Assembly: GCA_038897035.1 (NCBI GenBank)
Contig: JAWAXF010000001.1
Location: forward strand, 27,895 to 91,894
DNA: 64,000 nucleotides
Direction of reading: 5' to 3'
From: Candidatus Bathyarchaeia archaeon
GTDB taxonomy: Archaea; Thermoproteota; Bathyarchaeia; Bathyarchaeales; DTEX01
Position numbers and translations under genes: made by a program. Of this stretch, positions 30,189 to 41,653 are shown in pieces. Under the pieces are notes generated by a model. It worked only from the letters and a program-made list of their open reading frames with translations, did not search any database and was not told the DNA's origin. Positions within the stretch are counted from its first letter, which is position 1. Each line of letters opens with the position of its first letter.

Positions 30189-30346
30189 ATCTCCAGCCCC
30201 TTTACTCTACATTATAGTTTCACAAGAATTGGGAAATATAACTTTCCGTAGCTTATAGTCCATATACATCACTTATCTATACCCTTCTGGCCACACTATA
30301 AAGTACAGCGAGATTATGCCCACGATAATCGCTGGCAAAGGAGCGC

Positions 30347-31072
30347 TCAGCCGCGCCTAATCCTGTGCCCATATCTGCCTAGAAGCGGCACGAACGCTAC
30401 CCCACCAAGGTTCTCCTCAATAATCCTGCAATTCTCCAATTTCCTGACGCGTATCAGCGTCTGATAAAACCCCACCTCGCCTACCGGTATAACCATGATT
30501 CCACCCGGTCTAAGTTGCTCCTTTAATGGGGCTGGTATGTTTGGGGCCGCGGCCGTTACAAGTATCCTATCGTATGGCGCCTCATTCGGATAGCCAAGAG
30601 ATCCATCACCACATATGACAGTAATTCTATCACCATAACCAGCCTCCTCAATATTTTTCCTGGCAAACTCGGCCAGTTCCGGTATGATCTCTACGGTATA
30701 CACGTGACCCCACTTCCCCCTCGGGGCGTCGCTCGGAGCAACTATCTCAGCTACCGTTGAGGCATGCCAGCCGGATCCGGAGCCGACCTCAAGAACCCTG
30801 TGCCCCACATCTAACTCAAGGGCCTCATTCATTATGGATACCATGTCTCGCCGGGCTAATCGCAAGAATTAGCCCTGTGGCGCGGAAACAGTCTGCCCAT
30901 AACCTATCGGAAGCGGAGTATCAACCGCAGCATATAGCTTCTGATCCTCCGGTAGGAAAAGACTCCTGGGCACAAGTCTCATAGCCCTAATAACCCTAGG
31001 AGACCTAAGTATACCGGACGCAATTAAGTTCTCGATGAGTTTTTCCCACTCACCCCCAGACAAGAGCGACAC
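30347..31072 (-). CDS. pcm: Protein-L-isoaspartate O-methyltransferase; two exons (31072-30877 and 30846-30347), 231 aa after splicing
   Basis: [21 protein letters not shown]|[41 protein letters not shown]. Confidence 0.92.
30847..30876 (-). other. 30-nt archaeal BHB-type mRNA intron
   Basis: CGCC-AC^A-GGGCTAAT-TCTTGCG-ATTAGCCC-GGCG-AG^A-C: two 3-nt bulges around a 4-bp helix; contains in-frame TAA; excision gives CCA CAC ATG (P-H-M). Confidence 0.88.
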
Positions 31073-31231
31073 CTAAAACATACAAATAAGCACATAAACT
31101 TAAGCATTAACGCCAGCCCCTTAAGAAGACATATATAGAACTAATAGAGATGCCGAGATATGCCTAAAAGGAAAGACTAAAATATTTTATGGTTCTAGTA
31201 ATCTGACTTGGGATGCTATTGGAGGAGTTTT

Positions 31232-40201: not shown

Positions 40202-41653
40202 GTGATGGTAGTTCCGCTCGAGAGGATTGATAAGTACACTTGGCGTATACCGAAATATAAGCCTGGCATGCGTGTTCCAGGCGTCATCTTCGCAGATGAT
40301 GATCTGCTTGAGAAGATGAAGACCGATAGGACCCTTGAGCAGTGTGCCAATGTAGCTCATCTGCCGGGCATATACAAGTATTCTATAACTTTGCCGGACG
40401 GTCACGAGGGTTATGGCTTTCCTATCGGTGGCGTGGCGGCGACAGATTATGAAGAGGGTGTGATAAGCCCGGGCGGGGTAGGCTACGATATAAACTGTGG
40501 TGTGAGACTTCTAGTAACAAACTTTTCGGAAAAAGATGTCAGGCCTAAGTTGAATGAGCTGGCCACAGCAATATTCCACAACGTTCCATGCGGCCTAGGC
40601 AGCCATAGGAAGGACTTCTCAGTCTCTATGAATGAGCTTGATAGAATAGTGAGGGAGGGGGTTCCATACCTAGTAGATAAAGGTTATGGCTGGCGGGAAG
40701 ATATTGAGCACTGTGAGGAGCGTGGGTGCATGCCGGGCGCTAACCCAGACAAAGTCTCAAGCACAGCTAAAAAGAGAGGTGCGCCGGAGCTAGGAACGCT
40801 TGGCTCAGGAAACCACTTCTTAGAGATACAGAAGGTTGACAGAATATTTAATGAGGGGATTGCAAAGGCTTTCGGCATAACTCATGAAGGCCAAGTTACC
40901 GTGATGATTCATTGTGGCTCGCGTGGATATGGGCATCAGATATGCTCGGACTACCTGAGGATTATGGAGAGGGCCGTGCATAAATATCATATAGAGCTGC
41001 CAGATAGGGAGCTCGCATGCGCTCCTGGCACAAGCCGGGAGGCCCAAGATTACTATGAGGCTATGGCATGCGCAGTAAACTACGCCTTCGCAAATAGGCA
41101 GATGATAACCCACTGGGTTAGGCAGAGCTTTGAGCAGGTCTTTAAGACCCCCGCGGATAAGATTGGCCTACGCCTATTATATGACGTGGCGCATAACATC
41201 GCTAAGATTGAGGAGCACACCGTTGACGGTAAGACTATTAAGGTCTGGGTTCACAGGAAAGGTGCGACGAGAGCCTTCCCGCCGGGCCACAGGGATGTCC
41301 CAGCAGATTATAGGAGCCTCGGCCAGCCAGTTATAATACCGGGCTCGATGGGAACGAGCTCCTGGGTTCTAGTGGGCACCCCAAGAGCCATGGAGATAAC
41401 ATTTGGTTCAACGGCCCATGGTGCTGGTAGAATGCTCAGCCGCGCAGCCGCCACAAAGCGCTTTACTGGGGGCGAGATAAAGAGGATGCTTGAGAGTAGG
41501 GGCATAGTCGTCAGGGCGGCTAGCATGGCCGTCTTAGCTGAGGAGGCTGACCCAGCTTATAAGAATGTTGATAAGGTTGCCGAAGTGAGCAACGCTGTTG
41601 GTATAGCAATGTATGTCGCTAGACTAGTCTCATTAGCAGTTGTTAAGGGCTAA
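40202..41653 (+). CDS. rtcB: tRNA-splicing ligase RtcB
   Basis: PDGHEGYGFPIGG, GYDINCG, GTLGSGNHF, HCGSRG, HNIAK, HRKGAT, HGAGR. Confidence 0.97.
   Translation: MMVVPLERIDKYTWRIPKYKPGMRVPGVIFADDDLLEKMKTDRTLEQCANVAHLPGIYKYSITLPDGHEGYGFPIGGVAATDYEEGVISPGGVGYDINCGVRLLVTNFSEKDVRPKLNELATAIFHNVPCGLGSHRKDFSVSMNELDRIVREGVPYLVDKGYGWREDIEHCEERGCMPGANPDKVSSTAKKRGAPELGTLGSGNHFLEIQKVDRIFNEGIAKAFGITHEGQVTVMIHCGSRGYGHQICSDYLRIMERAVHKYHIELPDRELACAPGTSREAQDYYEAMACAVNYAFANRQMITHWVRQSFEQVFKTPADKIGLRLLYDVAHNIAKIEEHTVDGKTIKVWVHRKGATRAFPPGHRDVPADYRSLGQPVIIPGSMGTSSWVLVGTPRAMEITFGSTAHGAGRMLSRAAATKRFTGGEIKRMLESRGIVVRAASMAVLAEEADPAYKNVDKVAEVSNAVGIAMYVARLVSLAVVKG

Follow-up and report, generated by a model that had tools for sequence, protein, structure and literature searches.

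How an intact enzyme could be made from an interrupted gene is the question raised by pcm, the gene for protein-L-isoaspartate O-methyltransferase (PF01135, PCMT), on the minus strand of a 64,000-nt stretch of contig JAWAXF010000001.1 from Candidatus Bathyarchaeia archaeon (the whole stretch is referred to below as the window). Two open reading frames (ORFs) adjoin at 30865-30869, one at 30869-31072 (67 aa) and the other at 30347-30865 (172 aa). When compared with Pfam, the first ORF matched PCMT profile positions 4-60 (E 1.9e-12) and the part beginning at the ATG at 30844 matched positions 61-208 of 210 (E 7.7e-43); the gene is thus interrupted between profile positions 60 and 61, with no portion of the protein missing or duplicated. 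The unspliced reading frame stops, after a 67-residue fragment, at an in-frame TAA in an insert of 30 nt. Scripted removal of this insert (30847-30876) gave a single 231-aa frame with one terminal stop and the junction A-P-H-M, reproducing the claim of an earlier reading of the same DNA made from its letters (the sequence-only reading). We consider it very likely that 30847-30876 is a real archaeal bulge-helix-bulge (BHB) intron within the pcm coding sequence, its cutting and joining being predicted from the sequence.

The BHB layout described in the sequence-only reading was confirmed on the minus strand, with a central helix of CGCC and GGCG, bulges of ACA and AGA and an inner stem of 8 bp. 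Relative to the 4-bp helix, the 5' bulge is placed inward and the 3' bulge outward; consequently, base pairing is between the 5' exon and the terminal part of the insert, the arrangement known from pre-tRNA. The 51-nt junction region is present once in the genome, its other matches being 11-15 nt long and at chance level, and a mobile or repeated element was ruled out on this ground.

An order-level sample was made up of this genome and its 60 nearest relatives (61 genomes), in 57 of which pcm was strongly matched; a 58th genome gave a weak, paralog-level match only. The insert was found at the same split His codon in 54 of the 57 loci. The three intronless loci all belong to family f6 and contain an uninterrupted A-P-H-M, identical to the predicted spliced sequence. 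In loci from named Bathyarchaeota or Bathyarchaeia records, the insert was present in 69 of 80 and absent from 11. When 301 genomes of the class Bathyarchaeia were sampled, pcm was found in 269, and a junction pattern matched 56 of the 301, once in each genome, compared with none for the reversed control pattern; the figure of 56 is a lower bound, two class genomes with a split pcm match having escaped the pattern. By family, the matches within the order were 15 of 15 genomes in f1, 22 of 49 in f10, 2 of 2 in f11, 8 of 12 in f7, 1 of 1 in both f2 and f12, and 0 of 6 in f6; outside the order but within the class, they were 5 of 7 in f20 and 1 of 15 in f26.

In a phylum-level sample of 201 genomes, 140 of which contained pcm, a match starting at the junction was obtained in 14 genomes from four families outside the class (eight in f47, three in f58, two in f62 and one in f45). 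These 14 loci and five f20 loci were retrieved, and all 19 were interrupted at this codon by an insert of matching architecture. Metagenome contigs supplied a further 80 loci, of which 78 were assessable and 77 contained the insert; 69 were distinct and 60 were new to the set. The sole insert-free metagenome locus (L322, 72% identical) resembles an ordinary intronless lineage and not a spliced copy. The sequence-only reading had looked to related genomes for variable inserts at the same His codon with compensatory changes; these were found on a large scale, and that reading understated the case, as the putative intron is not peculiar to this genome.

The inserts were compared in 112 distinct junctions. 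Insert length ranged from 23 to 57 nt and its remainder on division by three was 0 in 31, 1 in 43 and 2 in 38 junctions, a spread over all three classes that indicates no pressure to preserve the reading frame. An in-frame stop occurs within 88 inserts and the remaining 24 are all of frameshifting length, so that none of the 112 could be translated through. The helix and bulge columns were gap-free throughout, both bulges being always 3 nt long and the loop variable in length. The central 4-bp helix was 99.8% paired, and all four central pairs were formed in 76 of the 77 metagenome loci. The pair between the third base of the Ala codon and the insert was G-C in 93 junctions, A-U in 15 and G-U in four, with no mismatch, indicating that, in several lineages separately, a synonymous exon change was matched by one in the insert. 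In the inner stem, changes on both sides were observed across the relatives at all nine pairs tested. The named structure was paired in 91.9% of alignment cells compared to 21-43% when the partner was slid by 1-3 columns, and the same pairing outcome was obtained with a 92-row alignment.

The third base of the 5' bulge was A in 90 junctions, T in 18 and G in four. In the 3' bulge, the first and third bases were A in all 112 and the middle base was variable. The outer exon-exon helix consists of one pair (G-C in 111 junctions, G-U in one) and the position beyond it is unconstrained (T in 44, C in 28, G in 26 and A in 14), which agrees with the earlier description of a relaxed BHB with a single G-C exon-exon pair. 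By the definitions of the BHB motif and its relaxed forms in the available part of PMC6379350, the predicted pcm motif is of the relaxed HBh' form. A distal exon-exon helix between the Thr-Val and Met-Val codons, suggested by the fold, was rejected, the third base of the Thr codon being evenly distributed (A 30, T 28, G 27, C 27). The stop has an identical position in 57 of the 112 junctions: it is codon three, counting from the interrupted His codon, and falls in the 5' arm of the inner stem. Shared ancestry of the stem sequence may be the simple explanation.

For cbf5, PMC2738675 gives the archaeal BHB rule that each bulge is cut behind its second base. Applied in silico, this canonical cut rebuilds a His codon in all 112 junctions, as C + AC in 111 and C + AT in one, and it gives C + AC in 77 of 77 metagenome loci. 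In the window, the cut register is ambiguous by one base, the first base of the intron and the first base of exon 2 both being A. The ambiguity is absent from 22 of the 112 junctions, whose introns begin with T or G and in which His is obtained from the canonical register alone; this settles the cutting register. The spliced junction predicted in silico is also that of intronless relatives (A-P-H-M), and an intronless relative matched 1jg1, the closest solved protein isoaspartate methyltransferase structure, with the same uninterrupted motif (E 2.7e-55).

In comparisons with relatives of the same genus, exon 1 gave a ratio of nonsynonymous to synonymous substitution (dN/dS) of 0.08-0.26 and exon 2 one of 0.03-0.07, dS being at least 0.5, and no other stops or frameshifts were present in the exons of the 57 order-level loci. 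These ratios place both pcm exons under purifying selection. The genome showed no further copy of pcm, its other match being a methyltransferase paralog (33% identical, E 1.7e-5).

In the proposed pathway, CGCC in exon 1 of the transcript would pair with the GGCG ahead of the 3' bulge to form a 4-bp helix between two 3-nt bulges, the 5' bulge being closed by an intron stem-loop of 8-9 bp and the 3' bulge by one G-C pair between the exons. A two-subunit EndA would then cut after the second base of each bulge, and RtcB would join the exons, so restoring the conserved S-A-P-H-M motif, with its His codon formed as C + AC. The 231-aa enzyme would be translated from the joined exons, and the excised 30-mer would probably be circularised. 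The positions of the elements are given in Table 1.

Table 1. Positions, in window coordinates, of the interrupted pcm gene, the elements of its predicted BHB motif and the RtcB gene
Feature	Position	Strand	Basis or remark
pcm exon 1	30877..31072	-	GTG start at 31072 from the ORF list; last base, C, is the first of the split His codon
Predicted BHB intron, 30 nt, in-frame TAA	30847..30876	-	Sequence; removal gives a 231-aa frame
pcm exon 2	30347..30846	-	Begins with AC of the His codon, then ATG; includes the stop codon
Central helix, 5' strand CGCC (Ala and Pro codons of exon 1)	30879..30882	-	Paired with 30849-30852
Central helix, 3' strand GGCG (3' end of intron)	30849..30852	-	Paired with 30879-30882
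5' bulge ACA	30876..30878	-	Predicted cut after second base, between 30877 and 30876
3' bulge AGA	30846..30848	-	Predicted cut after second base, between 30847 and 30846
Inner stem and loop	30853..30875	-	30868-30875 with 30853-30860, 8 perfect pairs; possible ninth U-G pair
Inner loop, 7 nt	30861..30867	-	Fold
Span closed by the sole outer exon-exon pair, G30883-C30845	30845..30883	-	G-C in 111/112 and G-U in 1/112 junctions
RtcB RNA ligase gene, putative exon joiner in trans	40202..41653	+	PF01139 match; ORF

The enzymes that such a pathway would use are encoded in the genome. Two EndA paralogs (PF01974) were found, both with N- and C-terminal EndA domains. The catalytic residues of EndA are Tyr, His and Lys. 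The 191-aa paralog keeps all three positions, and its closest chains are the crenarchaeal 3p1z_B, 3ajv_B and 2cv8_A; the 201-aa paralog has Ala at the position of the catalytic His of Methanocaldococcus EndA (1a79). This composition, with one apparently catalytic and one apparently non-catalytic paralog, fits a two-subunit EndA, and enzymes of the two-subunit type are described in PMC5829648 and PMC2738675 as cutting relaxed motifs outside tRNA; the epsilon type is the other one able to cut relaxed motifs (PMC5829648). RtcB was matched by PF01139 over profile positions 1-426 (E 3.1e-176) at C1:68234-69544, which is 40340-41650 of the window. The RtcB gene lies approximately 10 kb from pcm in the same window, and the catalytic EndA paralog lies approximately 3.4 kb past the end of the window on the same contig (C1:95308-95565).

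The cbf5 gene of this genome is also split. Its first ORF ends soon after G-H-G-G-T-L and contains DKCLD by Pfam, and its second part starts with P-K-V-T-G and contains TruB_N (profile positions 17-149), TruB_C_2 and PUA. The insert is beyond the window, on contig C5 (L141:1482-1510), and the position of the break is that given for the crenarchaeal cbf5 intron in the available part of PMC2738675. Among loci from relatives (L221-L250), the insert was present in 29 of 30 and absent from L240, and the 4-bp central helix covaries, with three fully paired versions. A cbf5 gene split at the classical site indicates that the lineage already has the established type of archaeal mRNA intron, built like the pcm insert. 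The portion of PMC2738675 available reports the cbf5 intron for Desulfurococcales and Sulfolobales only, and the range of this classical intron is here extended to Bathyarchaeia. The pcm intron is not a member of the cbf5 intron family, as its host gene differs; it is the same kind of element.

In two relatives (G044:C66:1837-4203 and G045:C11:292017-294371), cbf5 exon 2 holds an in-frame insertion of approximately 1.6-1.9 kb, the open frames being 873 and 797 aa long; these open-frame insertions are probably inteins.

When the genome was scanned for BHB geometry combined with ORF fusion, 779 loose candidates were obtained, compared with 19 under a stricter filter and 39 under a separate 3'-bulge filter. 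The scan recovered pcm and missed cbf5, because the central helix of the latter is mismatched in this genus. No further intron was recognized among the six candidates whose translations were inspected, in a scan that was not exhaustive. Four of the six clearly spanned the border between separate genes, such as that between a methyltransferase gene and an RNase Z-like gene; of the other two, one had no long fused frame and one had low-complexity frames.

Several observations weigh against an intron in pcm or reduce the force of the arguments for one. No reads on 30247-31146 came from four metatranscriptome data sets (three raw-read runs and one contig set, included as coming from the same studies), none of which is listed as containing the stretch, so that this is no test either way. 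The 71-nt RNA fold reached -25.1 kcal/mol (z = -2.32), and 3 of 200 shuffled sequences were as stable; taken alone, the single-sequence fold is modestly unusual compared with shuffles. Moreover, two bases of the 3' bulge are paired in the minimum-energy structure and unpaired in the centroid. The form found is not the strict hBHBh', the outer helix h being only 1 bp long and the inner helix h' being present, and a relaxed motif needs a broad-specificity enzyme; the specificity of EndA in this lineage is deduced solely from its two-paralog make-up. The 335 cells with double-sided changes were matched by 0 of 500 shuffles, but the sequences are related, and therefore the shuffle controls overstate significance and the shuffle count is not a probability. 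More weight than to the shuffles attaches to the slid-partner control, to compensatory changes that arose repeatedly and independently, and to the variety of pair types. Finally, an ATG directly follows the insert and is preceded by GGCGA or GGTGA, and a separate start for a second polypeptide is compatible with the sequence.

Such a start is part of one alternative, a split gene in which polypeptides of approximately 66 and 165-172 residues (the second from ATG 30844 or TTG 30865) assemble without splicing and the hairpin is intercistronic; it has, in our estimate, a small chance of being right. The ATG was found after the insert in 112 of 112 junctions, with the purine-rich GGCGA or GGTGA 3 nt before it, and both ORFs are intact and under purifying selection. 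However, this ATG belongs to the conserved H-M motif, equally so in intronless genes, and is uninformative. The GGCG or GGTG covaries with the Ala codon of exon 1, which fits a helix and not a ribosome-binding site, and the bulges are exactly 3 nt everywhere while the loop is free in length. In addition, neither piece would contain the conserved His, the bases for which (C + AC or C + AT) are nonetheless kept in every junction, and where the insert has been cleanly lost, in several lineages and even among members of a single genus, the gene is again continuous.

A second alternative accepts BHB cutting and assigns it a different role, in which the mRNA is cut mainly to regulate or destroy it, with poor ligation or conditional splicing and little enzyme made most of the time. 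We give this only a slim chance; it is also a possible refinement of the splicing interpretation. The unspliced form is non-functional in all 112 junctions, by stop or by frameshift, and the element has long been retained even though clean loss is possible; a BHB in a 5' untranslated region (UTR) is reported to affect expression in Haloferax (PMC7714728, available part). On the other hand, both exons are under strong purifying selection and the frame is restored exactly, which shows that the spliced product is seen by selection, and repeated loss of the intron without loss of the gene suggests that the intron is dispensable.

It is highly improbable that a chance insertion inactivated pcm and that the gene is now decaying. 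The in-frame stop in the window's copy would be expected of such a pseudogene, but the same interruption is kept in more than 100 distinct sequences from several families, the order-level exons are free of other lesions of the kind, dN/dS is 0.03-0.26 at saturating dS, and the other match in the genome is the 33%-identical paralog and not a second pcm copy.

Ribosomes are able to bypass a stretch of mRNA, as in phage T4 gene 60. Such recoding across the pcm insert, with the hairpin as stimulator, is barely credible: a stable hairpin, and a stop that follows the break closely in 88 of the 112 junctions, resemble its ingredients, but matching take-off and landing codons were not seen on reading the window's copy, no intact His codon is in frame with the Met codon, so that A-P-H-M is unobtainable by hopping, insert length varies from 23 to 57 nt, and the pairing of exon with insert end and the fixed 3-nt bulges would have no role.

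For the history of the predicted intron, an exon-2 protein tree of 136 rows (L001-L057 and L142-L220) and 164 columns was built by a quick search and has a weak backbone; it does not include L058-L137 (named loci, largely from genomes already represented) or L251-L330. For 17 rows with the motif variants A-[ILV]-H, APS and QPG, intron state was assigned by hand. Intron state was clustered on the tree, changing at least 9 times compared to a mean of 45 when it was shuffled. Of the 74 intron-bearing rows, 73 fell in one group of 95 rows (support 84), which also contains 22 intronless rows, and one genus has members with and without the intron side by side in a clade of support 100. The tree is consistent with a gain long ago and several clean losses since, and multiple gains or transfer of the gene together with its intron would also be compatible. 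Old gain and later losses are likewise proposed for cbf5 in the available part of PMC2738675. To judge from its occurrence in most of the order, in one more family of Bathyarchaeia and in four families beyond that class, the pcm intron is old and widely inherited. The f26 locus (L209, G250:C178:1350-2110), on a 3.8-kb contig, has a pcm that nests inside the window's genus with support 92, which suggests a misbinned contig or a recent transfer.

In genus g24, the junction pattern matched three of seven genomes; three others had a full-length uninterrupted pcm, and one had a split match that escaped the pattern. In genus g30 of f10, pcm was undetected with this query in 12 of 14 genomes, those listed being 88-100% complete. 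As far as these genomes tell, both the pcm gene and the pcm intron are being lost in places.

The proposal of a new mRNA intron locus in the sequence-only reading agrees with the literature searched, in which no report was found of a pcm or isoaspartate intron or of an mRNA intron in Bathyarchaeia, although supplements of the cbf5 papers could list further predictions. In the available part of a 2020 paper (PMC7714728), cbf5 is the only BHB intron reported besides that paper's own 5' UTR case, and introns in other protein genes were merely predicted as of 2009 according to the corresponding part of PMC2738675.

The crenarchaeal cbf5 intron of Desulfurococcales and Sulfolobales, as described in the portion of PMC2738675 available, is like the pcm element a short BHB-type intron in a coding sequence, its motif often relaxed and its cuts placed between the second and third bulge residues. 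Both genes are broken in phase 1 in the codon of a key residue, cbf5 at G + AC of the catalytic Asp and pcm at C + AC of the His, and the cbf5 intron is likewise linked to a hetero-oligomeric EndA and shows lineage-specific clean loss. They differ in host, cbf5 encoding a pseudouridine synthase and pcm a protein-repair methyltransferase, and in lineage, the pcm intron occurring in Bathyarchaeia and four other families of the phylum. Splicing and EndA cleavage of cbf5 were shown experimentally (PMC2738675), whereas the pcm intron is known from sequence alone.

Pre-tRNA BHB introns (PMC6379350, available part) share with pcm the two 3-nt bulges, the 4-bp helix and the pairing of the 5' exon with the 3' end of the intron; the pcm insert is within their size range, and the same enzymes, EndA and RtcB, would act on both. 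In contrast to pre-tRNA, with its tRNA body and anticodon stem, pcm has no tRNA body and an exon-exon helix of 1 bp, and its product would be an mRNA that stays in frame only if the cuts are exact. The BHB intron in the 5' UTR of HVO_1309 of Haloferax volcanii (PMC7714728, available part) also makes an mRNA a substrate of the splicing endonuclease, but it lies in an untranslated leader, belongs to another phylum and was verified in vivo and in vitro.

To go by the available parts of PMC2738675 and PMC7714728, cbf5 has for more than 20 years been the sole archaeal coding sequence known with a tRNA-type intron, and pcm would be a second, independent host. Should splicing of pcm be real, mRNA splicing by EndA and RtcB would not be confined to one gene, and the more than 100 natural variants would constitute a mutational series on what a broad-specificity endonuclease needs outside tRNA. 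Repeated precise loss, even within a genus, would inform the gain and loss of archaeal introns, and annotation pipelines could be missing or truncating real genes of uncultivated archaea.

The splicing of HAC1/XBP1 is eukaryotic, uses the Ire1 endonuclease, is completed by RtcB ligation in animals, is regulated by stress and purposely changes the reading frame. Like the splicing proposed for pcm, it removes a short intron from a coding sequence without a spliceosome, by a structure-recognising endonuclease and joining of the tRNA-ligase type; it differs in having Ire1 as the endonuclease. A broader proposal, which we regard as unlikely, is that the pcm intron is ancient, predates the split of several classes and has been kept to couple production of the repair enzyme to EndA and RtcB, as an archaeal counterpart of HAC1/XBP1 that would form with cbf5 a regular layer of expression, more split genes being hidden among 'pseudogenes'.

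When tRNA genes were predicted with ARAGORN, only 37 were found in the genome, 18 of them with introns, some at non-canonical positions. Three of these 'introns' were implausibly long (295-320 nt), and further interrupted tRNA genes are probably hidden in the genome. Contigs C10, C16, C18-C21 and C23 have a G+C content of 41-43% compared to 44-46% for the rest of the assembly, which could mark them as islands, mobile DNA or contigs foreign to the bin.

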